Positions 14,614-52,612 of a stretch of 64,000 nt of DNA are shown here, piece after piece. Source of the stretch: Blasia pusilla (Eukaryota); assembly GCA_050084515.1 (NCBI GenBank), contig CM114271.1, positions 9,982,001 to 10,046,000 on the forward strand, in the 5' to 3' direction. The notes beneath the pieces were generated by a model. That model was not told where the DNA came from. It was given only the letters and a program-made list of their open reading frames with translations, and ran no database searches. The translations under genes and the position numbers were made by a program. Positions within the stretch are counted from its first letter, which is position 1. Each line of letters begins with the position of its first letter.

Positions 14614-17591
14614 TTAGGCTGATGAGGGGATGGGAAGGGTTGGTACAATCGGAAGCCCTTGACGGTTTAGCCAAGTCTGTCGTGGGTCTATGAAGAACGT
14701 GGACAGGAATGGTTCTGCTTCAGCTTCTCCCAAAGTTCGAGCCCAAGGTACCCGCTTGGTGATGACACTTCCAGGACCTGAACATCTGCAGCATGACAAA
14801 TTTAACGTTCTCAGGTTGTAGATCATAAACATAAATAAATTCATGGATACCCCCATTCACAGGGACAATCACTTCAAACATGGCCCAAAGAGGAAACATA
14901 ATCCCTTCTAAAATTAACCTTCAGGAACCTAGGAGATCATAGAAATATTGACAACAGATTCAAATTCAGATCCCTTGTTGAGTTTCTCCAGAATTTGACA
15001 TATGATATCTCAAAGCAGAATTATCACTTTTGTCATCTTCCTTCAAGCTCATAGAACTAAGATAATGGTGAGTAAAGGACTATTGATAGAATACTTCCAA
15101 AAGAATCTCAAGAACACAGACCACATCATTAAATCCTACCGGTATTCATAGAATGCTGCCGTCCTTTCATTGTCAGGATTATTCCAATTATTCCATCCTT
15201 CAGGGTTGATGCACCGGTCCAGCCATGTGTATGCAAACACCACTCTTGCATGAGATCCCCAAGGACGGCCCAGGTACATGTAAGGTTTACTCTCTCCAGT
15301 TCCAGTGATCACACACCTGGCCAATGATGTTAGTTCTCATCAAAATAAAAAACAATTCTTAAGAAATCAATATCTCTTTCACACCACCTAATTTACTACT
15401 TGGAGAAAATGATACAACTAGTTTCTGTTCTACAATTATGCACCTCATATGTATGTGTTCACGTCTTAACTCTAGAGAAAAGCCTTTTGCCTTTTGTGCC
15501 TTCTCCGCTAGACAGACACAACTTTCCTATCAACCATCAAGCACCTTTCCAATCTCTACCCATTTTTTAATTCATCTCAATATTATGCCATCTGGGTCAG
15601 CATATTTGATTTAGCGTTTTAGAAATTTCCTGTTCTTTCGGTTGTGAGGAATAACATTCCACTCTTGAGATTGTAGACTGAACTCTTATGAGGCCCACAA
15701 ACAGAAAAAAAGTCATGGCCTCACTTTGCAGAAAGAAATTACATCTGCATTATTTACTTCATACAATGAATGTTAAGCACACAAGTTGACCCTAGTGTGC
15801 CAAAACTTAGTTCCTGCTGTAAGGAGCCTGGTGGAATTATTTTATAGGAAGAGAAGGATATTTGATTGTTGGAACCAAGCACTAGATTCTCGCTTAGTTT
15901 GAGAGTTTCTTGGTATGAGGTCCAATAGCAGGCTATTCAGGTTCTGAAAGATATTTCGGTTGAGCCCTTTGTAACCAGGTTATTCATCACTTAGATCAAG
16001 AAAGAGCACGACCGTGACATCAACATGAACTCAAGCGCAGCCCACCAACCTGAGGAACACATAACCAGTGGTTTCGTCTGCAGTTTGCCGCTGTTGAGCA
16101 GTAATGAAGCCCTTGGACTTACAGTGAATATGACAGTGCTCGAGAAGGACAGTAGAATTGCCAAAAATGAAGTCCACGCTGCCTTCGATGAAGCAGTCCT
16201 TGAAATAATGCCTACCATAATGGAGATAAGCAGTGTCCTGCACAAATAAACCAAACGGCCATCTCTGGAGTCAAGTTCTCCACTCGGAATAACTTGGATC
16301 AATATCCAACAAAATCTCCAGTCTTGTAACAACTGATTCGTTCTTCTACTTTGCCATTTAAGCAGAGTCGTGTCATCCAACTTAGAAGTGCAATCGGTTT
16401 CTGCTGGTAGGCTCCCGGAGTCTCCAGGAGCCTGCCAATTAAATATAATTTTGCTCAAATTTCAACCCTACACGTGACTCTGAAGTTCAATCAATACATA
16501 CTCCTCAGCGCTTAAAATCACAGCAGATAGAAACCTTTTCCTCCTTTTCACCGTGGCAAAACACCATTCAAGTTGTTAGAGGACAGTACCTGCCAACCTA
16601 GAAATCGGCAGTTGTAAAATGCGCAACGATCTGCTGTGACTCGAATGGCCACGGCCTGCTGAGAGCCCTGCTCAAGTCACCACCCTATGTTTCAATTTCT
16701 ACAGCTAAGAGCAATTGTAAACTAACTCTAATGCACTGCATTCATTGAGTACATGAAGGCTCAGAGCGTAAATCTGTCTGACAATTTTCTCACAGTGATC
16801 GGCAAAGACTAGTTATCCCAATTCAAAAAAGCCATACATCCTATTTCAGTTCAGTAGACTCTTCTGAATGACTTGACCTTTGTTCATTATTCATGCCTAC
16901 CCAGAGGTCGAATTGGACAACAACATCAGTCAAATAACATCGCCAAACACAACTCCTGATTTCCACTTGTTTTCTTACTTCTTAAAGTACGTCTTTCGTC
17001 CCAAATTGCGATCAGTTTTTCAACATGTTGAGATAGCAATGATTGCATCCAAGACCATATCTCCTCTTCTCGCTCTGCAAACCCTAACAAGAAGAAAGAG
17101 GTAGACAGGTGTGCATGCCTGAGGTGCAGTATTTTCGAAGGTGATGCCTTCTGCAATAAAATCCTCTCCCTCAACTATGATGCTACCACACCCAAAAGTA
17201 CCGGTCCCGATGACCGATGCTTCCTGCACTCGACAACCGCTTTCTAGCTCAGGTGCAATTCAGTTCAAAAAACCTCTCCAATCCACATGCGGCGAGTTTC
17301 ATCATGACGACGCGAACAAGATAAGGGAACCCATGCCTCGTGATGCTGAATGTTTTTGGCGGTATTGTTCCAGCTCAGGCAAGTTCGCTCAGGATCGCTC
17401 CCTTGGAGAGTGATGAAGTCTTTGGTTTTGGGTATGTAAACTGGTTGAATGTAGAGCCCTGGGGCAATTCTGATAATGACTCTCTGCCTGTTCAGTAAAG
17501 GCACCGCATCAATTGCTTCCTGCACCGTCGTGTACTGCCCGCTTCCATACCGCGCAACGAGCATCTCCCTTCGCTGCGGCCCTCTTGACAT
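14614..17591 (-). CDS. PME31: Pectinesterase (pectin methylesterase), PME31-like, no PMEI pro-domain; six exons
   Basis: Exons 17591-17337, 17223-17119, 16667-16590, 16237-16050, 15316-15140 and 14785-14614 join in frame. Motifs: 'GSGQYTTVQEAIDAVP', 'IAPGLY', '[27 protein letters not shown]', 'GSVDFIFG', 'YLGRPW', 'GWNNW', 'FYEYRCSGPGS'. No stops seen. Confidence 0.9.
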
Positions 17592-17688
17592 ATTTCTACC
17601 TCTCCGCTACAAGTTCACCTGCAATCTACCACAACTGATTGGACCGGGATGTCCAACCCTTCTTCTTTCTATCCCCAAGGGCCTATAA

Positions 17689-17729
17689 GGTCGCGGAAAT
17701 AAGGTCGCCGCGACCTTATTTCCGCGACC
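17689..17729. promoter_or_regulatory. Perfect 19-bp inverted repeat with a 3-nt loop, ~100 bp upstream of the PME start codon
   Basis: ggtcgcggaaataaggtcg-ccg-cgaccttatttccgcgacc. The palindrome is seen directly; a regulatory role is only inferred from position. Confidence 0.5.
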
Positions 17730-19959
17730 ATTTGTATTTCGGTAAGACAAACCAATCTATCTATAAAATCTATCTATATTATTATTGGAGTGCCTTCTTA
17801 ATGTGCAAACACTCCATCTCCTTACAACTGGACTTTTAGGCAAATGGAGACAACGGGCGGGTACTTGGGGTCTGACGGCTTCTTAGGCATGTTTCTCGCC
17901 GCCGTTTTAGGGTGCTCACGGATGCTGCATTTTAGGGTTTCGGGATATTTGCCGCATTAGTTTCAAACGGTTTTTTTTTCGTTTTCAAATTTATGTCCTT
18001 AAGGTAGTTACAATCTCTTGGAGAAGGATGGTCCGTCGATTTAACTGACCTCTCACTCAACATAGACTTGCGGACAAAGCAAGAGGGCATATAGAGGAAA
18101 GACAATATTTATTGCTTCATCCAAATTACATCTCCCCACCGCTCGCGACAATCAGGTGAGGTCAGCTTTTGAGCATCCATTCAGGCTGTGAGCGTTTTGA
18201 GGTGTATTATTGATCTGAATCAAGTTGTAGTATAGTCTCCATTGCTATTGTTGCTTCACTGCTCTCCTAGCTCTACCGATCTACTATATTTTTTTATTCT
18301 AATAGTATCCAGTGCTTCCTAAAATACAGGATTGAGCTACAGTGAGCTCCGACCTAAGCCCCATCTCCAACTCCAGCTTCGTCTTCAGCTCCAACTCCAG
18401 CTCCGACTTCAACGCCGCCCCGACTTCTTTCCCAACGTGGCCTGGGTTACAACTCCAAAAAGGGTCGAGTTACTTTCGAGAGCGCTCTTGCGATGAGACT
18501 CCCAGACCTGCATTTTGAGCAAAAGGTGCAAAACAATAGCACCTACCCAAACATTACAAACAAGATTACAATGAAAAAGTCCACATAGGGGAAGGGAAAT
18601 AGCGTATCCATGGCGACATTGTCAAAGAGGCATTACGGAGTTAAGTCACTTGATATTCAACCACTGGAAAGCTCCAAGTGGTCTCCAATATCGCAAGAGG
18701 ACCTCATGCGTTTGAGCGAGTGGAAAAAGACACATTGTCCCAGTGCGACTTGGGGAGAGAGGCTCACCCCCGAACATGTACCGGGCTTCGAAAATCATGT
18801 CAAGGATTCACTCTCGGTTGGAGCATACCCTGCGTCGCCAGACAAGGGTATTATCCAAATCCATTCGAAGGTCTGGGAAAAAACGTCTTCATGGAAGTCC
18901 AAGGGACCCCCCCTTATCAACTTAGGAGGCCCAACAATGAACGAGAAACGAGGGAGCAGGCATCTTCGAAGAAACGGCAGATATTTCCATACCCCCTAGT
19001 AGAACAACAACACTCACCTTCTCATAGGAGGTCCCCAATTTACGTGAAAAGACCTACATGTACCCCAGAACCACAGGAGACTAAGAAGTCACCTTAGAGA
19101 GCAGAAAATGGAAAGAACGTAGTAGTGAATATTCAGATCTGAAGTTGAAGAGCTACGGTCAAAAGAGACACACGTGTAAGTTATCTTTGATAATGCATGG
19201 TGGTTAAGTTGTTAGCTAGATCCCATGTCTGTTTGTAGAGCATGAATGCCTCTTAACTCTCTGCCCGTCCCTAGCTTTGAGTACTCAACTCAAGTACTCT
19301 TTGGCCGAATATAGCTCTGGCCAAACAGACCTACAATGGGCTCCAAGTAATCTCTGGCCGAACATATTATAGGGCGAATAGACCTAAACTCTTAGAGCTA
19401 CTCTCATACCTGCAGACTCTCGGTGAAGGACACTCCCTTCCAATTGAGGACTACACAGTCACTCCAAAGCCAAATCCGAACCCAAATCGAGCGTGGCCAC
19501 AGCAGGCCTTGCACATGAGGAAATTCAGAACCCGAGCGAGAGATTAGTGCAAGAGTAGCTAGCTGCTAGGGGGAAAGTCAAAACCGGGGGGACAAATCCA
19601 GAGCAAAACCGCTCCAAATACAATCGAACAAAATGGTAAACACATTTATACCCCAAGCCGCACGCCGCGCACATGAGAAATTGGATGCCCGTTTGAGTAC
19701 AGCGTGGGAAGCTAACACCCTACAGAGGATCACGCTTATTTTTGTGCAGAAAGCTTTTTGGGTCATGATGTTGGCTCCCTCAGGAACGGTGAAAGTAGGT
19801 GTGGGATCTGAACTTGGAGAGGAATCCCCTCGAGTATAGACATGACATCGCCTAGCTGAAATGGCGAAGGTAGCTGACCGAAGGACGCTCACAGTAGAAA
19901 AGCCAAAAAAGCTCCCGGAGGACGCTCACAGTAGAACAGCGTGGAGGAAGCCATGGAAA

Positions 19960-20655
19960 TTTCTAACCTCTTTCCTTAGTGCATCTCCTGAACAAGCAAA
20001 ACTAAAGAACTTCGGTGCGAAGAACTTCCTATCCTGTCTTTACGAAAGACTCCTATCATATCTTTGCAAAGACTCTACTTCTTTTGCTGCTGCCTCAAAG
20101 AAGTCCTCCTCGCAACTTTCCTTCAATCCGCTTTCTTCAAAGCATTATGTCTCTTTCCATTCCTACTCTTTATACACTTTTCCGCTTTCTGAAGACCCTC
20201 TAATTCCTTCTTCTTCTTTCTTCAGCTTCTTTGCTTTCTTAGTCTTCACTCTTTGGTCTTCGGTCTTCGTTCTTTGTTCACAGTCTTCGCACAAAGACTC
20301 CTTTGGATCCTCTGCTGCAAAGAAGAAGAATTTTAGAGGTCTTCGTTGACAATCTTTGCCATCTTCTCATACTGCAGTCTTCCCTACGAAGCATCCGTGC
20401 CTCTTACTCTTACTTCTTTCCAACTCTTTTCTTACTCTTACACAGTTCTCACTCCTCCAAGACAGTCCTAAAATTTTTTTACTCTTTTTTGTCCTTTCAA
20501 CATAGCTCTTCCATTCCATGCTTCCACAAAATTTCTGTAAAGTATACCTCTTTACTTCCAGTATTGAGTCTTTAATCTTCACTCGATGAAGACTTCACTA
20601 TATTCTGTACAAAAAATGACCTTCCTATGAAAATTCCAAAAATGTGGGCACTTCA
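19960..20655 (-). mobile_element. Partial LTR of family B, truncating the RT of the DNMT-bearing element
   Basis: On the minus strand it starts 'TGAAGTGCCCACATTTTTGG', like the LTRs at 38794 and 49779. Similarity is traceable for ~700 bp; the far end was not identified. Confidence 0.75.
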
Positions 20656-21349
20656 GTTGGTAATCTCCACACATCCGCCTATCCATCCAGTTGCCATGCA
20701 TATCCTTCTTGTTGGGCATGACAGTGGTAGATGCATACTCTCCATGCGACATCTCCACTAGTCCTACTCCAACCAAGTCATGGCTCCTACTCTGAATCAG
20801 AGCCCTCTCCACGTCAGTATATTTGTAGGATCGTCAAAAGATCGGCGTGTCGCTAGACAACTCGATGCAGATCCTTGGACCCTTCAGCAAACCCAAATCA
20901 TGCATATTAAATGCAAAATAGCTCATGTAACTCCTCAAGAACTGATGTATCCGACGCCGCTCTCCTCTTGTCAACTTAAGGCCCATATCTGCCTCCCAAG
21001 TCTCCATCGTGACTATGGTAGGACTCTCTGCCGCGGGTATTGGTGGTTGCTATGGTGAAACCCCGTCTGGGAAAATGACACTCGATTGCTCCCCTGCAAC
21101 CAATTGCAACATCTCATCTCCTCCATATGCAGTACCCAGAACCACGCTCAATGCTGTGGGTGCCATCGCTCGGCGTACCTGCAAAACATCCCAAGAAGTC
21201 CAAGGGTGTCTCTCCCAATCATCCATGGTGTGTCGATCTCCTCGAGTCTTGCCCCCAGCCAGTGCCTCAATCGTCTCGGTAGGCATGGGGCTCACCAACG
21301 CAACAACTGTGATTTGTCGCATCCTCAAACGACATTGCTCAACTACTCC

Positions 21350-22276
21350 TAAGCTGAAAATCCATGTCAAGCAGTTCAGGTCTATTTCCTGACCCAAGAC
21401 ATGACGTCGTGATGCCTCTTATAGTGATGGTAATGCCGTCATTCCGCTCATCGGAGCTGGGTTCCACCAACCGCTGTATTTGGTCATCCCAAACCAAGCC
21501 AGGTTCGGCCTCCTTGGATGCATAGGAAGCGGGAAAACTCACCAATATGGGAAAGGCTCCCCGTGGCATGCCAATCTTGTTGACCACTATCAATAGAGGT
21601 CGATCATCGTATTGTATTGCTTATGACCGACAATCTGGATCCATAATAGAACCACCAACATATGGGAGGGGCGGTCCACTCTCGCATACACCCTCCATAA
21701 CACCTCATGTGGCACCAAGTTGGTCCACCAAAAATGCGGGAGATGTGCTCGTGAACCTACACTCGCTGCATCTAACAACATTTCCGGGCCGATCCATGCA
21801 CGTACATGATGTGCACTCGTCACCACGCGGGTCATCAAATTGCCCAAACCCGGCACATTCTCTAGAATATATGTCGGAGAACGAGATTGATGCTCCTGCA
21901 AGTGTCGCAAGATCCGCATCATCTCCCAAAATAACCTAGATCGAGTGTCAGCCAACCTACTAACTCATCTAGCACTCTACTGGCCCTAACATGGCCAACC
22001 AGCAATGACCAAATCTATGGCCCCTACCCACTCCAAGTCATGCGCCCCCAGCAATGAAATGTCACTCGGTAGGGAACCCTAGTACCCCTGGACGGTGGAC
22101 GCAGACAACAAGTAGAGAAATCGAAGGCGTAATTGTGCCACATGGTGAAGTGAAGCGCATCTCGCTACATCATGAATCTCAACATATAGGTACTGCTGCA
22201 CGCGCACTCCTGCCTGCAAAATAACAGCTAAGCCATTATTGATCCCTCCACAGAGATCCAACATCCGAATACCCTC
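21350..22276 (-). pseudogene. DNMT3-like DNA (cytosine-5) methyltransferase domain inside the retrotransposon pol
   Basis: Motifs in canonical order: I 'IRMLDLCGGING'-like (MLDLCGGINNG), II 'YLYVEI', III 'SDISLL', IV 'IDLVIAGWPC*G' (~22018-21983), 'RSRLFWEMMRIL', VI 'YILENV', VIII 'DAASVGSRAHLPHFWWTNL' and X-like 'LGQEIDLNCLTWIF'. Confidence 0.85.
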
Positions 22277-23427
22277 ATTTGGGATGCACCACACAATTGG
22301 TGTGGTGTCCAAGGGTGTCATCATAGCACTCATGGCTACCTCGGGTTCCTCTGACCCGACATGCTCTGGTGCAAATGCTTCACTCCACGCCGTCTGCACG
22401 TGCTCATCAGCTAAGCGTCAAAGCTCCTCACTCAAGCCCCACAGCGGCACCTCTCCTCCACGGAATGATGCGGCTACCATAACACTCCTCTCCCTAGAAG
22501 TGTCAAGTGCGGGTGTGTCCTTTGCATGGATATGCCCCTCAATCAAGTCACAAGGCCACGTGATGGCGCTGTTGAATGCTGCTATTATCGCCATCTCTCC
22601 TGGTTGTCGCTCGATCACTCCACCGGTGAATCAAGCGGGTAATGAGCTAAGTTTCCCATCACCTGACTGCCATCCTAGTCTATAGGACGTTGACTCCTCT
22701 AGGTAATCCAAGGAAAACCCCATCGAATACAACTCTGCTCCACCAACCAAGACGTTGTAGGACTCAGCATCAGTCACTATCGCCTTGGCTCACATCACGG
22801 ATTCATTTGTAGGATGTCTTGGGTGAATCCTCACCACGACCTCGTATTGGGTGATAAATTGTGTGGTACTCACTCCACCCAAAGATGTCTGTATCTTGAA
22901 TGGACAACCCTCCACATCGGCTCTCGTGAGGCCCAAACCCGTGAATGCCGCTTTCCCCAACATCAAGGGTTGCACTCCCGAATCTAACAAGACGCGCTGC
23001 GGAAAAAATAATCTACCTGCTGGACTCACCAACTGGAAGATCTCTCCCTGGTTTTCCAACAACACACCACTTGGAGCAACCATGGCACACTCTATCGCGA
23101 GTCTAGCGGGCATTTCCGCCATCCTAGCAACCGCAACCTGCCATGAATATGAAGTGGACGGCCCAAGTTCCAAGGGCAGGTCCTTCACCTCCTTTGCAAT
23201 CACCTTTGAACGTTATGCAGGAATACCATCTCCATGCTCACGTAGCGTAGCGGCCAGCTAGAACACCTTGGCGGGCGTACCTCCCAACGCCATAACATCC
23301 GAAGCACAAAACAAAGGAGCACGGTATACCATTGTGGCCGCCCCCAACATCATACTCAACATATGCTCCTCTCGAGCATTAGCAATAGGAGTCATCGCAC
23401 TCACTTCTCCCATTGCCCTTTGTGCCT

Positions 23428-24647
23428 TGTAATGTACAAGAGTTTCTATTTTACAGTCGTTTTAATAAGTTCGATCCCCAAGAGGATCATTGTTTGATGA
23501 AAAGAGAGTTCGGAATTACAATTCTGTTGTAATAGTTGTATTTAAATGTGTGAGTTATATTCTATGTCTTATCAATATCTTATGATCTTTCTTAGTACCA
23601 AAGGATCTTTTCTCGATTCTCTCTAGTGGACTTGACATCATGTTCAAGTAGATTTTTCTCTCGACATCAAGAAACCTCACAGAGATCTCAACACGAAAGC
23701 TGGTTTCTCCTACTTTCGGAACTCAATCCGTCTCGGCAGGCTACTCTCTGTCAAACAGATTTCCTACAACTTAGGTTGATTATTTCACTGATGAGAAAGG
23801 TTCGCCTGATTCACTCTTCACTCTATAGACCCAAAAAAGAATACTCAGACATAAGCATCGCACATCAGAATGAATGAATGATTGCTTTACTACTCCATCA
23901 AGAACGAGAAAGCTTCAAAGTGTATACAAGCTCAAGAGGGTACTACTCTCTTGCTCGGATCATTCCTACAGCATAAGGACTTCGTAAGAGAATGATGATT
24001 ATGGCTTCTGTCTTGCTTCTTAAATACTCGCTGGAGTAGGAGTGATCCAAAGATTCGAAGCGTTCTTGATGAAGATGGTGTCTCTTCAGCATTTGTAACT
24101 ACATAGATCTATGGTTCTCTTAGTTTTTCCTACGATCCCTGTGAATCCGCGGCACAAAACTGTCCTAACTACCAATTTGATACAAAGGGTGGCGCCCCTT
24201 CCTAGTCTAACTGTTCTAACGTGCGTCGCTTGAAATCACAGTCCTTCTTAGCTTTGCTTCGCTGTACTTCATGAGGACAAAGCACTTCATGATTCTTTCT
24301 TATTTCAGGTGCTTTGTGCTTCGCACTTCGTACAAGAGCGAAGTACTTCTTTCTCTTCCTCTTCATGCTTTGTTCAGGAGTGAAGCACTTCATAAAAAGG
24401 TTCTTAACAGTGCTTCGTTGTCTTTTCCAAGCTTCGCGTTGGGTCTTTAGACTTTGTTATTGCATTTCCCTCTCCTCTAAGGCAAATCCTTGATCTTCCA
24501 TCTCTCTGCCTTGTCCCAAGAGCTTCGTAATTCACTCATTCTTCCTCATAATAATAAATAATCAAAATCAAAATCATAATGTATATACAAGTCTTCTTTG
24601 AATAAAAAGATGTATTTCTTCAAAAGTACAAAATTGTGGGTATCACA
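23428..24647 (-). mobile_element. Solo LTR, family A (copy A1)
   Basis: TG...CA termini (tgtaatgtac...gggtatcaca) with the 5-bp TSD TGCCT on both sides. Homologous to 42421-43677, 47609-48874 and 59491-60343. Confidence 0.9.
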
Positions 24648-27600
24648 TGCCTAGACACCAACAACATCAACTCTCCGAGAGCTTTGATCAGGACCCATCG
24701 ATGGGGTCCTCATCGCCTCGGCTAACGTGAAAGACTGAGGACGTTTGTTTTATGGCTTCCCCTCTCTGTGGATCCAACTCTACGGTGGCTCCACGTGTAA
24801 CAATAGCGGGTGCCTCCAAGTGGACAATCGCGCACATCCAGCCAAGATCCTCCATATCTCCATCTCTTCCATAAGACGTCGATGCCGCAGATCCGACATG
24901 AGGTAACCTCAATGCCATAGCGGCAATCTACCACTGTAATTTCCGTATCTGAGCAGCCATCAGAGCCTCACGCCCGACATCTCCCTCGACACGTCTAGGT
25001 GGTGGAACTCTACCTCCTTCACAGGCAACTCCACCACCCTATCGGGAAAATCCAACTCCTCGTCCCCCAACGGGACCACTTGATGCACGACCTCTAGGCC
25101 CACCCGGACCGGCAACTCACTCTGGCCCTCAATCTGGACATAACTCAAGGTGTAGGCTGAGAAACCTGGCGCGTGTATGACCATACCTTTGGGAATAGTC
25201 ACACTGATAAATTCCTGGTGTAGCATCATCTCCTCCTCCATGTTGAGGCACGCGTCCACCACCGTGACGGATGCAATGGCGCTAGTGATGGGCTCCACTA
25301 TATGCCCAACAAATAATCGCATGCAACTAGTACTGAGCCGCAAATGAAGGCGCATGTCTCTGTGGCAGGGCCTCCTGGTATCCACCCTAAGCTCGTGGTG
25401 CCGCATACCTCTCTCAAAATCCATGTTGCTGTACTGGTGGTGAAGGAAATCGTAACTGCTCTCGCCCGGAACCCATGGTGGCTACGCTCTCCTCCGCCAT
25501 ATTGCGCTCAATATTCTTGCAGGTTGTAAAAACATCTCTCAACGTAGGTGAGGTGTGCCTAAGAAGTACTCCATCCCTCACCCATTTCCCCAGGTCTCGG
25601 TTCAACATCGCGTACCATGCCTGGATAGCCTAGGACTCTACCATCCCCTGAGTAATGCTAATCAACCGGTGTAAGCGAGTGTAGGCCTCACGCAAACTCT
25701 CATCCGGGCGCCTTTGGAAGTCATGGATGCTCCGCAACTTCTACGTATGTACCCCTTGGTAGCTCATCCGCAACTCAGCAAAGAACTCAACGACGGGGTT
25801 GAACTTGAGACGAACCCGACTGGACGATGCAATTACTCCAGTTCGAGTTACCCCTCCTAAAACATCACTGATGGAAGAAGAAGTAGCCTCTCCTAACTCC
25901 TCCTCCTCATCTGGAAACGGCTCAGTCCATGATTCATAATATGGGTCATAGTAGAATCTCCATGCCTCAATCTCTTGGGCATATCTGTGGGAGAACTCAT
26001 GGTAATCGTCCAAGGCGCCCCCTCTAAATGCTGGAACATTCCGTTCCATGTTGTCAACAGGTTGAACTCTCTAGAGTTCCTAGCCCGTTGTGAGTCACAA
26101 AAACTCCTTAACTCTGCAATAAAGTCATGCATCTCTATCGTGCCTCTAGCATCCAAAAACCTACGCGGTCCTCTACCTCGGTCGTCCATCTCGTACGCCC
26201 AACTGGTAGGACCACTCAATGTGTGCGGTGAATCACTAACATAATCCTCTACAGTGTCCCCCTTGTCTAAAGACAACACATAAGGAGGTTGAGGCGGTCC
26301 CTCATGTGGAGAACCTCAAAACCTTGAGCTACTCCACGTAAAACCTCTAGAGCTACTCTCAGGCCATCACCTCGCCTCTCCAAAGTCTCGAAAGGCCCCT
26401 TGGATGCCCCTCGTGCCCCTCTAACGCGATTACTTTCAATCCCATGAGAAATCACTCAATCATTCAAACTAAACATACAACACTCAATCTACACTCTCTC
26501 TCTCTGAGACGTGTGTTGTGCGGCAACAAGCGGCGTGGTGCGGAAAATCAGTTACTGTCCTATCAACTCATCGACAAAACACACCTTCAACTCTGGACAG
26601 TCCACACAGATCTATGTCCCCTAAACCACATACATCAATGATGCTCTCAACATCTGCACGAAACCCAATATCCCAAATAACTGCCCAGTACCCGAAATTC
26701 CCTCACACGTGCAGGGCAAAAGACTAGAATGGGTAACCTGACAACAATATCAATGTCGCTCCTCAGAAACTACAAACCTTGACCCCAAATTGATCATGAA
26801 AAAAAACTCCTCCAATTCACAAGTCGTACTCCTCTGGTACTGACGATGCTCAAATCTCTTCAATGTACGGTGCAGCAATGGCGGCACTGAATGGCTACAA
26901 ATGGCACGACACTCGGGAATGGGTGCAGCACTCAGCGGCATACCCTCCTCAACAACAACATATACTCTACTCCCAATGATGGTGCGGCTCCACAATTGAG
27001 ATGGTGCGGTGCAGCCATGAGCGGCACGACATCGCAATTGTCGGCACGTTGCGACTACGGGCGTAAGGGCACTGTACTCGATTGTCAACAAGCGGCTACC
27101 ACCTCACGACATAGCAAAGCGGAAAGCAAACTGCAACCCCATCAATCCAAAAAGGGCACCCATCGTCAGCGCTAGACAGTGCTTGCATACGCTCTGTGTG
27201 CAAATGGATGAAAAACTGCAGAACGTGAAGATGGCGCCCAAGAAAGAGTGCATGGCGGTGTAGAACTTTGGCGAGTCGATAGTGGTAAATCACAACCATC
27301 GGCTAAGTAGCGAAAATTGAAGGGCTAATGGGCTAATTGACGGATTGCTAAGCCTGACGAGTTGATGGCCACTTGACGGGTTGACGGCCATCGGCAGACG
27401 GATGGCAAGTGACAATGGCGACCTGGACGGACGGGATCAGCCGGATCGTAGTGGTTTGGCCATAGAGACAACAGGTTGGCCGCGGTCCTACGCAGGCCGA
27501 ACGGCGCAGCAGGCGGGATGGATAAGGCGGACAGAACCTAGCCGCGGGAATCTCGGAGGCAGGCTGGCTCACCCTACCTCGGCGACCCACGCGTTTAGGA

Positions 27601-28339: not shown

Positions 28340-30016
28340 TCAAGTGGACATGTCTAGGGATGGGGCATCAAACTGCACGTCAGCTTGAGAATTCATGTAC
28401 CTATCAAGATTAGCATACAAGTATCTGAAATGTGCACCAGTTTTCCACAAAATTACAAAGTCAGCCAACATGTCATCAAAGTCATCTATAGGTCCCTCTA
28501 GAGCAATCCTCAAAACAGCATCTAGATGCTTAGTAGCCAATCTATTACGTGACAGGGTCTTTAACATATGATGTTTCTTCCAAAAAAGTAGATGCATTCA
28601 AATCTTGACTTTCCAGGACATAATTCATGGTAATAGAAGCTATCTCAGAACTAAAAATGCTACCAATAGTACTAACATCGACAAACTTGTACTGAAAGAT
28701 TTTACTCAAGTTAGCAAGGCTAGAAAGAATATCATCAAGAAAATATAATTGATAGATCATTTGGAATTATCTTAGCTTGTTGTATAAATTTGAGGCATTC
28801 CCATCATCTTCAGACAAAGGAATATCCCTGAAATATATCAATACAGACTCCAATGAATCACACAAAGTACATACAGCTTGCCACCAGCTCAACCATCTGA
28901 TCTTATGATACCTCTTCATGACTCGTTGAGAGTCATTCAACTTTTCTTGAAGTGCTGCTAAGTTGGCTTTCCTCTTGGAAGACCTTCTGAAAATCCTGCT
29001 ACAGCGTTCAGAATAGAATCGATTTCTATCGAAATTGCATTGCAATGAGATGCACTTGCAGCTATCAAAGCTGCAAGGTTCGTCCTATGGGCTACACAAT
29101 GCACCGAAAGAAGATACGGGTTCACCTTTTGCTTCAATTGTGAAGCAACCCTGGTTTGGCTCCCGACCATTGAAGAGGCACCATCGGATCCAAATGCTAC
29201 TATTTTTGAATGTTCTAGTCCTCCATCTTTGATGAACTCCAACAGAATGTTAGTGATAGCATTTGAGCATTTGGATTCACATTGAAGCAAGCCTAGAAAA
29301 AAACACTCGGCTTGACCCTCTTCAATGAAAGTTGCAAACACCACTAAATGACATGTCACAAATATATCTGTAGATTCGTCGATCATGATCCCAAAGAAAG
29401 GAGAGGCCGAAACTCTAGCTAGAGTCTTCTTCATCAAAACTTGACTTATGAAGAAACACATCTCACTACGACTTTTCTCATCTTGATACAGGTCTCTAGT
29501 GATAGGTGCATTCACAACAAGCAACAACTTACAAAGAGACTTGAATTTAAAAAAAGGCAAGGCCTCCTTTGCAAGAAAGTATGCAGACCTGAATAAAGTC
29601 AACAAAGCAACCTCACAGGTTCGGTTGGATGTAGCTATGGCCTTAGCCATAGACTTCTTACCTCCATGGGAGGCCCAAGAAAGTTTTATGTGCTCATTTG
29701 ACTTTGCATGATCTGTGAATGCCGATACCTTACAATTGATACAACCATCCCTAGAAAATACACTCTTGCCTTTACCTTTCATACAAATATTACAATGAAT
29801 CCTCCCACTTTCTCGATCAAAACTTATCCAATCGTACATAGTATACCACACGTCTCTCCAAGCTACACGATTCTTCTCACGAATCGATCCATTGTTGCCT
29901 AACGTGCTTCTGTCATCCCTCTCATCAGATGATCCAGAGAGAGCTATGATGTCATGTTGTTCCTTGGGAACCTCCTTGAATAACAGTTCATTCACTGTTC
30001 TCTGGCGTTTGGCCAT
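28340..30016 (-). mobile_element. hAT-superfamily transposase (ZNF862-like), frameshifted
   Basis: N-terminal zinc finger 'WYTMYDWISF...HCNICMK...HAKSNEH'. Catalytic-like 'IMIDESTD' and 'GSDGASSM'. CxxH motif 'HCVAHRTNL', 'IRW', and a C-terminal 'LKTLSRNRL' dimerisation-like segment. TIRs not confidently located. Confidence 0.85.
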
Positions 30017-30603
30017 GAGAACTACGAAAATGGAAGTTCTAATATACAGATAGTTTCAATCTCCTTCTACTAGCTTAGAAAAGCGACTCACAAGACTAGC
30101 AGAGGGGAATTGAGTTTAATACAAGTAAATCAGAAGCTTCCGACTAACACAGGGAAATTTCATCAGGAGCTTTGGACTAACACATGGAAAATTTGGAAGC
30201 TTGGAACCTAGGCCGTCAGGACTACGCAGCTCTTGTGAGGCATAGACCAGAGCAGCAAAAGCTGCAAGATCGGATGTTGTAGGGGTTCAAGGGAAAGATG
30301 CAGCTGAAGTGCCACGCTCAAAGCTGAGTAATTGGCATCGCAAGTTCTACTTGTGAATGTGGCAGCAATGTTACGATCATGAGCACTCAACACCAAGATA
30401 GAGATGCAGGAGCAGTCGACAGCAAGATAGAGATGCCATTGTGTGATCGCACATCTCAAAGATAGAGACGATGAGAAAAATGAAGCAACTCAAACCAACC
30501 TAATACACGGACAGTGACAAACGCGGTGACCGCATGGGAGAGGGATGCAATGACAACAAAAGACGAAAGCTGCAAAAGAGACTCGAGTGAAAATATGCAC
30601 AAT

Positions 30604-33103: not shown

Positions 33104-35800
33104 CACGAGATATGGACCCCTACAAGGTTCAACCCTTTTATGGCATGGAAGGGTTTATTCGAGCACTTGGAGGGTCCTTCGATGGATGATTACATGGAGT
33201 TCTGATCGCTACACTCAGTAGAGATTGATGCCTGAAGGATGCATTGGGCTCCAGGGTATGTATCCACTAGTGTTTGCGAGGCATATTATGGAATAGTGAG
33301 GGTTGAGAGGCCTACACCATCAGCCCGGGGACTAGATGGAGCGGATGGCAGTGAGGTGGCAAAGACCTTTGGTGGTAGAGGGCCACCTAGTTTCAGTCCT
33401 ACAGTGGAGTTCTTCCAAAATTTGGGGAGGAGCCACCAAGGCATGCGGACCGACAAGCTGAAGAGTCTACAAGATTTTTGGCGGAGATCTGTTGAGAGTC
33501 TAAGAGAGGCGTTCACGCGCATGCGTAGACTGGTCATTGCAACATATGGGGTGACTAAAGCGCAGTCAGTTCAGTATTGGTACCGGGTGTTGGACTGGGA
33601 GTTACAGAGGAGAGTTCAGGATGCGATGTTGATTCACACAGCAAAGCCTACATTGAAGGTGGTCTTTGAGTTGTCTGAGCGGGGCGAGCTCAACATGAGT
33701 AAGGAGCAGGTGGTGACCATGGGATTTTCACGGGATTCGACGGGTTTGCGAGTAAGAGAAGTCCCATAGGTGACCTAGCATGTACCACTACCACGGGAGC
33801 AGGCCGGTGTGCCCAGAGAGTAGGGCGGGTATCGTGAGCCGATGAGGGAATGGCCAATACCGACATATATAAGGAGGGACCAAGGTTGACGTGTTGGACG
33901 TGTGGTGGGCCACATAGGCAGAGAGAGTGCCCACAACATGGTAGAGGGTCGAGGGTGCCTTCGAGGTGCTAAAGAGCCACCTCGGATGGCCCCACCACAA
34001 TTGCAGTGTGATCATTGTCACCAATATGGTCACACTAGGGATAGGTGTTTTGATCTTTGCTAGGAGATACATCTTGAGGTAGGTAGTGGACTTGGGGCGA
34101 GAGAGTTGGTGGAGATCAAATAGTGGATGATCATGGTGGTAGAGTTCCATCACAAGTCATAGGAGATGGAGGACGTACACCTGATGCAACACTCCTTACT
34201 CGCATCAATCAATTGGAGTAGAGGATTGCTGCCATAACGCTAATGCAGCTAGGGATAGGTACGAAGCCAAGAGTAGCTAGTGTGGCTTCAACCTCGACGT
34301 CTTTCCATGATACGAGTGAGGATTCATGTGGTATGGGATTTATGTGTAGTGCGGCTCAAGTTGAGGTTGGTGCGGTGGTGACTTGGGGTGCTTCAAGAGT
34401 AACCAAGCCATCGAGAGGTGGGGTTGAGATTGATCCATAGGAGGGGACCAATGGGCGGTGGGCCAGGGTTCCCTAGTCATTCACATTGTTGGAGGCACTT
34501 CATACACCATCGATGGTGCCTTGACGATTAGTAGTGCCCACAAGTAGGCAAGTGTGCCGATGTGACAAGGAGTTGGATAGGTGTTTTGATCTTTGTCAGG
34601 AGGTACGTCTAGAGGTAGGTAGAGGACTTGGGGCGAGGGAGTTGGTGGAGATCAAATAGTGGATGATCGTGGTGGTAGAGTTCCATCATCAATCACAGGA
34701 GATGGAGGACGTGAACCCAATGCAACATCCCTTACTTGCATCGATCAATTGGAGCAGAGGATTGCTGCCATGAGATTGATGCAGCTAGGGATAGGAACAG
34801 AGGTGAGAGTAGCTAGTGTGGCTCCATCCTCCACGTCTTACCATGATACGGGTGAGGATTCTTGTGGTATGGGATTTATGTATAGTGCGACTTAGGTTGA
34901 GGCTGTTGTGGAGGTGACTCGGGATGCTGAGAGAGTAACCAAGCCACCGAGAGGTGGAGTTGAGATTGACCCACAGGAAGGGACCGATGGATGGTAGACC
35001 ACGACTCCCTTGTCGTTCATGTTGTTAGAGGAACTTCATACACCGTTGATGGTGCCTTGACGACCAGTAGAGCCCACAAGTGAGGTAGGTGCATCGACGT
35101 CACAAGGAGTTGGAGAGACGATTCCTATGTCGGATTGAGTGGAGCCAATGTCGACCACATTGTTAAAGGTGGCAACTGGGATGAGTCAAGCTCCGTTCTT
35201 TTCTGCCATGGAGTTAGTGACAATGGGAGTCGGACCAGTGGAGGTATTTTGGCTCGTTGGCACGTTCTGTGAGCGTGGAGAGGTGACTACCTCTTGTTTA
35301 AAGGTAGTTGAAGAGGTGGTGGACTTGCCCTTGGAGCCAGTGCTCGGGACCTTGCTCAGGACGTCCCTCATTGAGTTGTGGCATGTTGCAGGGGAAAAAT
35401 TGGTAGATATGCCATCTAGGCGAGCGATAGAGCAAGCCATGATCACACCAAGTGTGGTGTTGTTGGATAATTGAGCATGAATTTTTTGCTTGGTTAGTCC
35501 CACAGGTACGGTGTACCACCCTAGCACGTCCTACTTGATTCAGAGCACAACCCTTGATGATAGGTAAGGCGGCGTGTTTGGCATTGAGGTTACGGAAAGG
35601 GGACATTGAGCGTTGTCTCTTTCAGATAGAGACCTCTATTGGGGGCGTATTGGCGTATTATCCACATAGTACATGATTTGAGAGGAGTTGGTGGTTAGAA
35701 TCCAACCAGAGCATGAGACGGATAGTGCAATGGTACACACTCACCCGATTACATCATCGGCAGAGTCGTATGATGTGTTGGTAGGGAGTACGGTGTTGTA
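33104..35800 (+). mobile_element. DNMT-Gypsy family gag-protease remnant (copy 2) with an internal ~536-bp tandem duplication
   Basis: Homologous to 57219-59490 ('FNPFMAWKGLFEHLEGPSMDDYMEF', 'KLKSLQDF..RSVESLREAFTRMRRL', protease 'VLLDS'). 34040-34575 is repeated at 34576-35111. Confidence 0.8.
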
Positions 35801-35949: not shown

Positions 35950-38900
35950 GTGGACCATATTGGGGCCAAAACTAACATTGTTGTTCGTGGCTAGGATCTG
36001 AAAACACACATACAAAGACCACTCCATACATGCTTACATCACTTAGACTATGGTGTCTATAGAATGTATTGCATCCTTATGTTTTAAAATACGAGTGGCT
36101 ACAGCGCACTCAAGGTTTAGACCTCTCAATAGATGAAAGATAATAGGCTCTTCATCCAAGGCTCCCACCCTCATACCCACTACTTTCTGAATATTTAACA
36201 CCCACTCATGATAGTCTAAGTATTAAGGAGTAATGGCAATATGAAGTTCTTTATTAAGTTGATGGGTGTTAGGCAAGTGTGGTTAAACACAAATCCTAGA
36301 AGTGAAGGAAGCCAACACAATGAAGGAAACAAGAACTCTTGCTGGGAGTTGTGAAGAATGAACAGAGTTAAGAATTCATTCCAGAAGGGAATCATAGAAG
36401 GGAAGCGTGCAACCTCTCAGAAAATTATGTGTTACCCCAGGATGTGATGAGTCGACATCGAGGTGCCAAACAACTCCGTTGATAAGAGCTCTTGGGAGTT
36501 ATCAGCCTATTATCCCCGGCGAGAAGAATGGTTTGAAGATAATGGGGGAACGAGAGGAAAGTGTGAAGGAAGCCTACCAGAATTCCTAAAAGGATGGACT
36601 CAGAGGAAAAGAGAATCAATCAAGTAGCCAACCTATTGGAATCTGACATGTTGGAGGACGTCAAAAGTAAAAAAAATGCAGAAGCACCAAATGAAGAACA
36701 AAAAAGAAAGAGAATGAAACAAATAGAAGCCTATCAACCTTACGTGAAACCTAATGGAATTCATTAGATTGCAAGACAAGGTGTAAAGCAAAAGGTATGA
36801 GAAAGTTGTCATCGGGGGCCATATGAATAAATGTGAGGGAACACAAACCCAATCAAACCTTCAACCCGTCAAAATCTGACAAGTTGTAAGAGAGTCCCGG
36901 AAGATTGGAAAATTTTAGAGACAACTCCTAGGGGGAACAAATAAAAAGAGAAGAAAAACAAATGTTTCTTCTTACAACTTGTAGGAATCCGACAAGTTGC
37001 AAACATTGTGTTTGGTTTGCAACCCGTCAGAATCTCACGGGTTGCAAGCCATTAGACCTCATTGAAGTAACCATAAGAGATAACCAGAGACCTCTTTCAC
37101 AAGTTTAAACAAGTCCTAAAGCCACCCCCTCCAAAAAATATCCCCAGTAAGACATGCAACCCGTCGGAATCTGACGGGTTGCAAAATAAAGACCGTCTAG
37201 TAGAGACCAAGAGAGAGCAGACATAGAAGCACCAAAAGTTTGAAAACACTACAAGAATGTAAAAAAACTTTGAATTCCTTTATTACAATCCAATCGCAAC
37301 TCGTAAATTTAAATTTGATTACCTAAACTATAAACTCTAGTCTATGATTTCTTCTACCTCGTCATCTAAAAATTTACTCCTAACTCTCCTCGGTTCGTGT
37401 ATAATAGAAATCTCTGCACATACGTCTAGCTCCTCTAGCCGATTGTAGAATCTCATGGGGATTGAGAATGTAGGGGAATTCAAAAGCCTTGCCCCCTAGG
37501 TACACCATATCAGTCCCATGTATCATGAGGAGAGCCCCAACGCCTTCCCCAACAATATATCTTGTATGCTTTGCAAGGTGACACACATCCAATATCAATA
37601 CGTGCTCTGCCGCTTGAAAGCACTAAATCCCAAATCTAAAATGCTTGAATTGATTGAACCCGATAAATCGATTGAACTCACCCGTCATCATCCAAGAGCT
37701 CTTCCAAAATGATTGTCGGCCTTGCCCTCTTGATTCTTGGAGTAATAGGAAGTGACGATGGTGTTACTATCAATGGCTCTACTGCAGGTTCACTTTGCTT
37801 TAGAGGCGAGTCGTAGACTCCCACTAGCCTTTCGTAGTTTTCCTTTGCCTCCTTCCAAAGATTGAATAGTTCTATCCTTCCCTCAAGGCATAGAATATTC
37901 CTTCCACTTTGCCAGACGCCTCTCATACTCACCCTTGATAATCCGACCAAGTCCAAGACCAAGTCACCTGGTCTCGAGCAGAGCTCCAGGAGCGTCTACA
38001 TCAACGCCGGTGACTTCTCCCTTCCTCCAAGCAGAGGGGTACCTTCAAGCATGAAAATTCCCGCAGGGGCGGGGGGGTAGTTAATTCTTCTATTTTATGG
38101 GGGGTTCACCGGAATGTCGGGGGGGGAAGGAATTGTAGAGGCTATCCAATGTAAACCTATCAAAGCATGTATCTACTAGATCCTGGATCTAAAACACCTA
38201 GAAATTGTGCTTCAGTCTGACAAAACAACAAACATAAGAGTGCTTGATCTATGCTTAAGACAGGTGCAAAATGATGTCAGCTTTAAGGTGGAAGAAGCAT
38301 GCAACTCGTCGGAAATTGACGAGTTCCTGTACAACTTGGACAAAATTCTAGTCGCAACCCGTTGGATTTGGACGAGTTGCTCATCAACTGAGACAACATT
38401 CTAGTTGCAACCCATCGGATTCCGACCGGTTGCTCATAAGCTTAGACAAAATTCTAGTTGCAACCCGTCGGATTCCAATGGGTTGTTCATTACCTTAGAC
38501 AGAATTCTAGTTGCAACCCGTCGGAACCCGACAGGTTCCAAATCTAGTTTTCGGGCTCGAAATGCAACCCGTCGCTGTCAGACGAGTTGCACTTCATCTC
38601 ACAACAGAATTCCTGCAACCTATCGGAATCCGACAAGTTGCATGTCTGAACTAGGAGTCTGAAACAAGGACTGAGAAAAGAAAATAGTAATTTGGGACGT
38701 ACCCGGAGTTGATTTGACGCAAATCTCAATCGGTATTCATTTTTTATCACCCAAGATTGTGCCATCTGCCTGCCTAAGGATGATGGAGTGTATTGTAGTG
38801 CCCACATTTTTGAAAATTTTGACAGAAAGAGCATTTTTTGTACAGAAGTCTTCTTTGAGTCAAGACTAAAGACTCAATACCAAAAATAAAGCTACATACT

Positions 38901-52100: not shown

Positions 52101-52612
52101 CCATGTCACCTCCCTAACATTGATGGTACAATTGATCCAAGCTTAGTTCTTGCTGGCTTGCAATGTATGTTGTGTGGTTCTATCCGTGGTACAACCACTA
52201 TGCTAATCTGTGATAGGTGTTCGAGAGGATGGCATATGGCATGTCTGGCGCCACCTCTCACTAGGGTTCCTCGAGGATGGTGGATTTGCCCCTGATGTAC
52301 ATAGAGTAGGTAGTTATAGATTTTGACTTGTGTCTATGACATGGATGACAAGAAGGTGACTAACGATAAGGCCACATGAGCACCCAACCTTTTTTCTCTT
52401 AGCATCCGAGAGATGTATGTCATGGTAGGTAGGGATAGATGGTTATCTAGAGTTAGAGGCACCTAACCACCAACTAGGGAGGCAATTTGAGATATTTTGG
52501 TACTTCTCCTCTTGTTTTTTGGATGCCATGAGGTGGCATGGGATCGTGCGTGTTTGTATGTATATTCGGTGACAGCGATATATGTTGTGTAGCGATGTTT
52601 ATGCGCACGACA
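49170..52612 (+). mobile_element. Gypsy pol 3' part: RNase H end (locally inverted), integrase with C-terminal PHD finger, PPT and short terminal repeat (probable DNMT-Gypsy copy 4)
   Basis: HHCC finger 'HHAHEELGH...YWW..DVQQFVARCMVC'. Core 'VLSHYGAP...DTEFCGE...LAERVVQTLK' and 'FSPYLLLYG'. C4HC3 PHD at 52164-52298. Purine tract 'tagggaggc' at ~52476. Confidence 0.8.
49779..51258 (+). mobile_element. Solo LTR, family B, inserted in the integrase
   Basis: tgaagtgcccac...gtacattaca with TSD ATGGA on both sides. Similar to 38794-40272. Confidence 0.9.

Follow-up and report, generated by a model that had tools for sequence, protein, structure and literature searches.

A decayed Gypsy-type retrotransposon copy in Blasia pusilla and its bryophyte and algal relatives carrying a DNMT3-like methyltransferase domain between protease and reverse transcriptase

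Can a land-plant retrotransposon carry a DNA methyltransferase of its own? Cytosine methylation is the main route by which plants silence transposons, so that a transposon family which itself supplies a de novo methyltransferase turns the usual roles around. The question is raised by a 64,000-nucleotide stretch of the Blasia pusilla genome (assembly GCA_050084515.1, contig CM114271.1, positions 9,982,001 to 10,046,000 of the forward strand; hereafter the window), in which an initial annotation described, at 20656-23427, a Gypsy long terminal repeat (LTR) retrotransposon encoding a DNMT3-like C5 cytosine methyltransferase (MTase) between its protease (PR) and reverse transcriptase (RT). Our analysis confirmed the succession of protease, C5-MTase and RT at this locus. 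The minus-strand stretch from 26210 to 20657 is very likely a dead copy, here called copy A, of a Ty3/Gypsy-type family in which a DNMT3-like domain stands between protease and RT and would act by the mechanism proposed below. The locus itself is a relic, and its value lies in the family, especially in Marchantia.

On the minus strand, copy A holds a protease with the LLDSG motif, then a complete, non-permuted C5-MTase motif set, then the start of a Gypsy RT. Using Marchantia relatives as tblastn queries, gag was placed at 26210 to 24742 and the protease-DNMT-RT part at 23413 to 20657. The parts of copy A and the two repeats that interrupt it are, in window positions:

24742-26210, minus strand: gag-like region, degenerate (tblastn of Marchantia proteins P0004-P0012, residues ~1-480)
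23428-24660, plus strand: R1, a 1.2-kb LTR-like repeat between gag and protease, with copies elsewhere in the window
22700-23413, minus strand: aspartic protease region with LLDSG (tblastn to Marchantia proteins and to the first open reading frame, ORF1, of metagenome locus L026)
21335-22303, minus strand: DNMT3-like C5 cytosine methyltransferase domain, motifs I-X in canonical order (PF00145, alignment, motif coordinates, trees)
21053-21334, minus strand: tail 3' of the DNMT domain, containing HPWxxWDV, a motif also present in relatives
21044-21052, minus strand: in-frame TAG followed by CAA CCA, the ORF1/ORF2 boundary, with a homologous stop in relatives
20657-21049, minus strand: N-terminal part of RT, cut short (tblastn to P0008, P0009, P0011, P0013 and residues 5-137 of L026 ORF2)
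20055-20655, strand not assigned: S repeat breaking copy A inside RT, 71-73% identical to 38794-39363 and 49779-50334

The coding sequence of copy A is spread over three minus-strand frames. Frame 1 (23461 to 21590), which has ten stops, holds the protease and DNMT motifs I, IV, VI and VIII; frame 2 (21620 to 21339) contains the target-recognition part and runs into motif IX; and frame 3 (21418 to 20579) holds motif X, the tail, the TAG at 21052-21050 and the RT N-terminus ending at 20657. The motifs were located as follows, in window positions:

22990-22976, minus strand, frame 1: protease LLDSG
22261-22244, minus strand, frame 1: motif I, LDLCGG
22000-21989, minus strand, frame 1: motif IV, GWPC
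21943-21923, minus strand, frame 1: RSRLFWE
21862-21854, minus strand, frame 1: motif VI, ENV
21754-21716, minus strand, frame 1: motif VIII, SRAHLPHFWWTNL
21464-21441, minus strand, frame 2: start of motif IX, EPSSDERN
21418-21374, minus strand, frame 3: motif X, EASRRHVLGQEIDLN

Domain coverage was judged by alignment with intact relatives (22 type-1 and 4 type-2 domains, two classes defined below), in which the three frames jointly span the whole MTase domain, its motifs following the order I-IV-VI-VIII-IX-X. With stops ignored, the frame matched Pfam PF00145 (DNA_methylase) at 30.7 bits (E 2.8e-7; gathering cut-off 22), the longest single ORF reached 17.6 bits, which is under the cut-off, and intact relatives scored 34-51 bits. 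No Pfam family matched the window gag read through stops, and no Pfam protease or RT family matched the window protease and RT pieces; the protease of the relatives matches Asp_protease_2 / gag-asp_proteas. The claim that protease, MTase motif set and RT lie in order on one strand was thus borne out by the frames, the alignment and the PF00145 match.

What did not hold for this locus is that the element encodes its own methyltransferase. In-frame stops were found in the DNMT domain at 22081, 21988, 21979 and 21967, together with two frameshifts (near 21620-21590 and 21420-21340), and additional stops lie between protease and DNMT (22792, 22633 and 22420) and in RT (20836). Motif I has C in place of the F of relatives, and two conserved arginines of motif VIII are gone in the alignment with relatives. 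The terminal branch of the window sequence in the DNMT trees is 0.69-0.72, compared to 0.14-0.23 in its nearest relatives. With four stops and two frameshifts in the domain, the locus has no open, potentially catalytic frame. Because of these stops and frameshifts and its truncation inside RT, copy A cannot make the enzyme and is an old, dead, truncated fragment. The region originally delimited, 20656-23427, does hold PR-DNMT-RT, but since the S repeat abuts RT and R1 abuts the protease, its limits are the edges of two foreign insertions, and gag lies beyond them. Nor did the initial annotation recognise the minus-strand placement, the two bounding insertions or the conserved in-frame stop, by which the DNMT belongs to the same ORF as gag.

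Sequencing reads of the same organism (one whole-genome DNA run and three RNA runs) were mapped on window positions 15000-27000 at a likeness of at least 80%. Many DNA reads, as well as 7+7 RNA reads, connect ~23419-23427 directly with ~24646-24668, and therefore other copies exist without the R1 insert, the DNA read depth of which (489-773) was below that of the element parts. The S repeat had a DNA read depth of ~40-60, and at 20659 the window sequence is left by 2171 DNA reads and, in each RNA run, by 112-156 reads. The R family, ~1.2 kb and LTR-like, has similar copies at 42406-43677, 47761-48593 and 59491-60344. The S repeat, ~1.5 kb, occurs at 20055-20655, 38794-40272 and 49779-51258, and is inserted in the RT of copy A as well as in the integrase of another copy.

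Since copy A is dead, the nature of the family has to be read from its relatives. A word-indexed search with the window DNMT part returned 11 long proteins, namely nine hypothetical proteins of Marchantia polymorpha (43-55% identity), one protein of Sphagnum fallax and one unnamed polyprotein of 1999 aa. Searching with the intact Marchantia domain gave 62 matches, among them 15 M. polymorpha proteins that are 82-100% identical to P0005 over the matched domain part, Calypogeia fissa (76%) and S. fallax (51%). A phmmer search against 1.84 billion representatives yielded 784 proteins at E ≤ 1e-3, 320 at E ≤ 1e-10 and 8 at E ≤ 1e-30. Closterium sp. NIES-53/54/65/68, Scenedesmus sp. ('pol') and Mesostigma viride were the named organisms, the rest being unnamed metagenome proteins, and no Klebsormidium sequence was among the named matches. 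The ESM Atlas returned generic DNA_methylase clusters only.

Mapping of gag/PR, DNMT, RT, RNase H (RH) and integrase (IN) segments onto 246 proteins revealed two architectures. Type 1, gag-PR-DNMT-RT-RH-IN, is the order of the window and was found in 51 proteins, including all bryophyte and Closterium members (the 15 M. polymorpha proteins, C. fissa, S. fallax, Closterium NIES-53/65/68 and P0166). Type 2, RT-RH-DNMT-IN, was found in 60 proteins and 17 probable ones, including that of Scenedesmus. The single-ORF polyprotein P0166 has Pfam matches to zf-CCHC, aspartic protease, DNA_methylase, RVT_1, RNase H and integrase, and the Gypsy pol order PR-RT-RH-IN, with Gypsy-type RNase H and integrase, was found in P0166, P0171, L026 and L009; copy A keeps gag, PR, DNMT and the RT N-terminus only. 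The same order in relatives thus upholds the description as a Ty3/Gypsy-type element with a DNMT between protease and RT. Further, ORF2 of L026 has a PHD finger after the integrase (40.6 bits), many type-2 proteins carry PF00628, and the loci L001 and L022 contain LTR-like direct repeats, 300 nt or longer and with 92-94% identity, spaced ~8.7 kb apart.

Phylogenetic trees were built from transposon-type and unnamed relatives only, with no DNMT-less outgroups. In a FastTree tree of 113 DNMT domains all 61 type-2 rows formed one clade (support 98), and 22 of the 25 type-1 rows grouped with the window (87), the three outside being long-branched. An IQ-TREE mixture-model tree of 55 rows, containing 23 of 47 full type-2 rows (22 taken at random and one added by hand) and leaving out the three long type-1 rows, placed type 2 on one side of a branch with support 96 and type 1 on one side of a branch with weak support (64); the window fell in a six-row clade (100) with Marchantia, Calypogeia, Sphagnum and two unnamed rows. 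In a tree of RT-RNase H with 49 rows, one branch (96) has the 8 type-1 rows on one side and the 41 type-2 rows on the other. Because both DNMT and RT trees separate them, types 1 and 2 represent two element lineages. Either one capture followed by relocation or two captures would fit such trees. Within type 1, motif IV of the Closterium clade (P0172, P0166 and relatives) reads GWECQG and not GWPCQG, the Pro of the catalytic Pro-Cys being replaced by Glu, and members of this clade are without an in-frame stop, having one continuous ORF from gag to integrase.

The remaining question about the architecture is how RT would be reached past the stop. L026 has a gag-PR-DNMT ORF of 1369 aa and, downstream and in frame with it, an RT-RH-IN ORF of 1047 aa, only one stop codon separating the two. 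Walking upstream from the RT match in 34 metagenome loci, we found the first stop at the homologous position and followed by CAR in 31 of them (TAG in 23, TAA in 8). Two exceptions, L025 and L043, have a nearer decay stop that is met first, the junction stop lying further upstream in their translations, and the third, L031, reads TAG TAG CCA. The two codons after the stop are CAA CCC in the largest group (that of L001), CAA CCA in L009, CAA CTA in L045 and L046, CAG TTA in L026 and L029, and CAA TCA in L050; the window has TAG CAA CCA at 21052-21044. An exact UAG+CARYYA, described in PMC5382211 as a type I leaky-stop signal that tobamoviruses, among others, possess, is therefore present in the window, L009, L026, L029, L045, L046 and L050. 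Marchantia and Calypogeia proteins and prokaryote-style metagenome ORF calls terminate at the junction stop, 58-145 residues past the DNMT domain. We infer programmed readthrough at the conserved UAG, because the stop is common to lineages that are saturated for synonymous change and ORF2 behind it is constrained (RT dN/dS, the ratio of nonsynonymous to synonymous change, 0.12 for L009/L045).

Alternatively, the stop may not be read through in a programmed manner, and RT and integrase could be reached by splicing, reinitiation or a subgenomic RNA, or be supplied by other elements. This has some appeal, as the gene models that reach RT (P0008, P0011 and P0013) bypass the stop by a predicted intron and the largest locus group has CAACCC, often after TAA. 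However, the homologous stop is kept in lineages with saturated DNMT dS (>1.7), purifying selection acts on ORF2, which keeps the frame of ORF1 wherever copies are intact (L009, L026, L029, L045 and L050), the exact UAG CAR YYA recurs in several loci although the chance of the hexamer is ~1 in 512, and no RNA joint across 21050 was present among the joints listed (63 more stand outside this set). We therefore consider this alternative unlikely, while giving it real weight. The tail upstream of the stop shares the motif HPW-x-x-W-D/N (window ~21190-21215) with Marchantia, Calypogeia, Sphagnum-like loci, P0207 and L009 and is otherwise variable; the motif could be a cleavage or interaction site.

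Programmed readthrough would have viral parallels in the type I stop of tobamoviruses (PMC5382211) and gag-pol of murine leukaemia virus (PMC5009743), where, in the parts of these sources available to us, a UAG likewise separates an abundant upstream product from replicase or pol; CAA CCA, CAG UUA, CAA CUA and CAA UCA all fit CARYYA. Unlike in the viruses, the boundary here comes after protease and DNMT rather than after gag, and readthrough is predicted from sequence. The available text of PMC5009743 mentions no LTR-retrotransposon readthrough case, and no dedicated literature search on a leaky stop or a PHD finger in such elements was made.

Which kind of methyltransferase the domain belongs to was assessed against solved structures. 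Using Marchantia P0005 as phmmer query against all PDB chains, the best matches were DNMT3A (1.7e-8) and DNMT3B/3C (~2-3e-7), followed by M.HaeIII (1e-3) and tobacco DRM (2.6e-3), and motifs I, IV, VI and VIII align in DNMT3A order. A profile of ten type-1 proteins (A1) matched DNMT3A at 1.3e-15, 3C at 1.3e-14 and 3B at 1.6e-13, then M.HaeIII (2.3e-7), DRM (6e-6) and M.HhaI (3.8e-5), with no DNMT1, DNMT2 or chromomethylase chain at E ≤ 0.01. DNMT3A/B/C thus lead the next class by 5 (phmmer) to 8 (profile) orders of magnitude in E-value. For the DNMT domain of the intact metagenome relative L026, an AlphaFold2 model made from a 39-row alignment had a predicted local distance difference test score (pLDDT) of 93.2 and a predicted template modelling score (pTM) of 0.91, and all PDB matches listed by Foldseek were DNMT3A, 3B or 3C (E down to 3.4e-20, TM ~0.8 on target). 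No PWWP or ADD domain was found by Pfam beside the MTase in ORF1 of relatives. By sequence match and modelled fold, the domain is a DNMT3-like catalytic domain, not permuted as in DRM and not a canonical DNMT3 gene, in line with the DNMT3-likeness and non-permuted motif order first proposed from the motifs.

A conserved domain of this kind might still not methylate DNA, being instead a structural or DNA-binding pseudo-enzyme, or an RNA m5C methyltransferase acting on element RNA or primer tRNA, and the GWEC of the Closterium/P0166 clade could be read in this way. We find this improbable, since across 22 type-1 rows the catalytic motifs I, IV (Cys), VI (ENV), VIII, IX and X are conserved at no less than 70-90%, the fold and the best matches are those of the DNA enzymes DNMT3A/B/C and not of DNMT2, and the available text of PMC5890265 reports de novo CG methylation by retrotransposon DNMTs.

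Selection was examined in 60 loci from a metagenome scan, with codons cut by tblastn against the L009 ORFs, stop codons masked and dN/dS calculated according to Nei-Gojobori. A locus was kept for a domain when a single high-scoring segment pair covered 80% or more of it (DNMT 26, PR 25, RT 21, RH 19 and gag 11). At dS 0.1-0.3 the median dN/dS values were:

DNMT: 0.53 (177 pairs)
RT: 0.43
RH: 0.39
PR: 0.60
gag: 0.72

For DNMT pairs with dS>0.8 the ratio was 0.18 (36 pairs, dS near saturation), and in the stop-free pair L026/L029 the DNMT had dN 0.033 and dS 0.255, a ratio of 0.13 over 329 codons, compared to 0.09 for PR. In relatives, then, the DNMT is under purifying selection, at a level similar to that of the core enzymes. 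Purifying selection on the domain accordingly stands for the family through its metagenome relatives, and not from the copies of the Blasia genome itself.

In Blasia pusilla, copy number and transcription were judged from the mapped reads, with a host pectinesterase-like gene (15000-17800) serving as single-copy and strand control. DNA depth over this gene was 0-1.7 per bin, with a mean of ~0.6, which in 1,966 Mb of reads gives a rough guess of ~3 Gb for the genome. Summed DNA depth over copy A was 2337 and 2075 for the RT N-terminus and tail, 1682, 1487 and 1752 for the DNMT bins, 2195 for the protease and 1200-1864 for gag. The family therefore amounts to on the order of a thousand or more copy-equivalents in the Blasia genome. 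In all three RNA runs, depth over 20614-23420 was 31-101 with the first mate on plus and 0.3-11 with it on minus; since this polarity equals that of the minus-strand host gene, the family transcripts are sense. Little RNA fell on the inserted repeat R1, which argues against DNA contamination.

The numbers also bear on whether ORF1 units are domesticated host genes of which the window holds a pseudogene. Many Marchantia annotations are indeed ORF1-only proteins, but about a thousand copy-equivalents in Blasia, RT-RH-IN in frame downstream in the DNA of relatives, LTR-like repeats, and 15 Marchantia paralogues 82-100% identical to P0005 in the DNMT, as in a young transposon family, make domestication very improbable. 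That a host DNMT3 fragment or pseudogene merely landed in a single Gypsy copy, by nested insertion or assembly chimera, is hardly credible despite the nest of insertions (R1, S) and the related gag-protease copies without DNMT in the window (copies B and C, below), as the DNMT lies in the protease frame, its read depth is 65-85% of that of its flanks and >1000 times that of the host gene, the same order recurs in 51 proteins of several lineages, and copies B and C end right after the protease without RT. Depth so close to that of the flanks excludes a one-off capture for the family, a possibility that the initial annotation had left standing.

For intact members of the family we propose the following mechanism, the steps of which are not applicable to the dead window copy. 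Most ribosomes would stop at the UAG, giving Gag-PR-DNMT as the main product, and a small readthrough fraction would add RT-RH-IN-PHD. With the DNMT upstream of the leaky UAG, the methyltransferase would be as abundant as Gag. The protease would free the DNMT, which might then methylate DNA of the element itself, as cDNA or newly inserted, or chromatin close by, and the PHD finger of the integrase could read histone tails and guide integration. It is possible, though doubtful, that an ancient Gypsy lineage, reaching from zygnematophyte algae to bryophytes and still transcribed at high copy number in Blasia, makes a DNMT3-type enzyme at Gag level, has a PHD finger on its integrase, methylates its own fresh DNA or landing site and in this way writes part of the host heterochromatin, rather than merely being silenced by the host.

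Several observations weigh against this picture of an active, methyltransferase-bearing family. Enzyme activity, readthrough and methylation target are all inferred. Selection and ORF evidence come from relatives in other organisms and not from the Blasia genome, and the DNMT ratio of 0.53 in young groups is only moderately below 1. The stop-free pair L001/L018 has a DNMT dN/dS of 0.91 at dS 0.057; ratios near 1 in very young copies are explained by the decay expected after insertion. Among the DNA reads, 68631 of 81621 are less than 90% alike to the window copy, and because read depth counts everything of at least 80% likeness and most reads are diverged, much of the family may be as dead as copy A; the RNA could be due to a handful of copies or to read-through transcription. 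At the junction, the largest locus group has CAA CCC, which is not YYA, with TAA in 8 of its copies. The DNMT3 label rests on matches to solved structures by sequence and fold, the trees being without DNMT1, CMT, DNMT5 and plant DNMT3. No direct repeats were found in L026 and L034, nor was an LTR found in copy A, the 3' half of which is missing.

Retrotransposon DNMT3s are already known from Klebsormidium. De Mendoza et al. (2018, PMC5890265) describe KnitGypsy-Dnmt3 in Klebsormidium nitens, as well as DIRS and LINE elements with a DNMT in Symbiodinium, and propose self-methylation of retrotranscribed DNA. As far as described there, KnitGypsy-Dnmt3 resembles the present family in being a Gypsy-type LTR element of a streptophyte host with an intronless, non-rearranged Dnmt3-related domain in its polyprotein ORF, in its conserved key residues and in purifying selection (Ka/Ks < 0.2, compared to 0.13-0.18 in the relatives studied here). 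It differs in host, those here being liverworts, moss, Blasia and Closterium, and in its DIRS-like repeats, whereas the relatives here have plain direct repeats ~8.7 kb apart. In the present family the DNMT lies between PR and RT, upstream of the stop; the comparison with KnitGypsy-Dnmt3 concerns features other than domain order. Most algal and metagenome relatives, in turn, are of type 2 and form a separate clade in the DNMT and RT trees. SymbioDIRS-Dnmt3 and SymbioLINE-DNMT, according to the same source, are likewise transcribed, present in many copies and equipped with a C5-MTase whose catalytic residues are conserved, but they are dinoflagellate DIRS and LINE elements with a tyrosine recombinase or endonuclease, held by the authors to be independent acquisitions.

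Among host enzymes, animal DNMT3A/3B/3C provide the best match in sequence and fold and share the motif order, including GxPC, ENV and the AHRxRxxWxNL type. Identity is 20-23% only, and unlike these enzymes the domain of the family is embedded in a polyprotein without an adjacent PWWP or ADD, the sole PHD-type finger lying at the far end of ORF2, after the integrase. Plant DRM (PDB 4onj) is a DNMT3-related de novo methyltransferase of plants, but its motifs are circularly permuted and its match is weak (E 6e-6) and covers part of the domain. The EpiLTRs/DAM-LTRs of 10.64898/2026.05.21.726589 are likewise LTR elements combining a DNA methyltransferase with a chromatin reader; in the part of that source available, however, their DNMT is sister to DNMT4 and placed at the 3' end of pol with Dam and a chromodomain, whereas the family described here has a DNMT3-like MTase after the protease and a PHD finger as reader. 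One metagenome protein, P0138 (1417 aa), has Pfam domains for both DNA_methylase (C5) and Dam (N6-adenine), like EpiLTR elements.

The initial annotation knew of no described land-plant family. In agreement with this, the literature covered, which leaves out most subscription journals and supplements, contained no description of one from Marchantia, other bryophytes or land plants in general, and the available parts of PMC6453930 and PMC11982613 make no mention of a land-plant Gypsy-DNMT3 family. On the other hand, 'streptophytes (Gypsy-DNMT3)' are listed in the accessible text of 10.64898/2026.05.21.726589, and the Marchantia, Calypogeia and Sphagnum proteins are already public as hypothetical proteins. 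New here are a lineage from land plants and Closterium in which the DNMT follows the protease, split from the RH-DNMT-IN lineage; its transcription and high copy number in a plant with a large genome; and a conserved, predicted leaky-stop boundary together with an integrase PHD finger.

DNMT-bearing retrotransposons, so far known from dinoflagellates and one charophyte alga, thus extend to land plants, at high copy number and with transcription, and the enzyme occupies different positions in at least two element lineages. Its place on the gag side of a conserved leaky stop in the bryophyte lineage predicts a high dosage. Marchantia polymorpha is transformable and has methylation mutants and a young family of 15 annotated paralogues, and what a transposon gains from methylating DNA is therefore directly testable. 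There is also a risk that ORF1 proteins are annotated in bryophytes as DNA methyltransferases of the host.

Further elements of related kind in the window are:

33116-35798, plus strand: copy B, gag-protease only, of a related subfamily (tblastn; 74-76% nucleotide identity to copy C)
57219-59492, plus strand: copy C, gag-protease only, with an R-type repeat (59491-60344) immediately 3' (tblastn, repeat comparison)
49322-52298, plus strand: integrase-PHD fragment of another copy of the same kind as copy A (tblastn with L026 ORF2 residues 533-689 and 710-1034, 45-56% identity)

Copies B and C share their end point, which corresponds to about residue 725 of Marchantia P0005, just short of the DNMT position. 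Because both end after the protease without RT, they are truncated or non-autonomous rather than autonomous elements lacking a DNMT, and they may represent a non-autonomous gag-protease derivative. The R repeat is probably the LTR of the B/C subfamily, as R at 43677 to 42406 directly precedes a gag start at 42358 to 42089. The single match to a primer-binding site motif was no better than chance and lay on the wrong strand with respect to copy C. Inside copy B, 540 bp are duplicated in tandem (34039-34580 and 34575-35117, 84.5%). The integrase-PHD fragment consists of 49322-49777 and 51327-52298, split by the S repeat at 49779-51258, and matches Integrase_H2C2 (46 bits) and PHD (38 bits) in Pfam.

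The pectinesterase-like gene lies on the minus strand, with PF01095 in its matches and three RNA-supported introns (15314-16048, 16236-16589 and 16666-17118), and it was expressed in all three RNA runs. At 18609-19009, RNA depth was 25-44; nearly all RNA reads mismatch the window at the same positions, at least six in number, and end in loose sequence at 18622 and 18728, and these transcripts probably originate from a paralogous locus elsewhere. Finally, a stop-to-stop open frame of 365 aa at 28958-30055 on the minus strand appeared transposase-like by eye.

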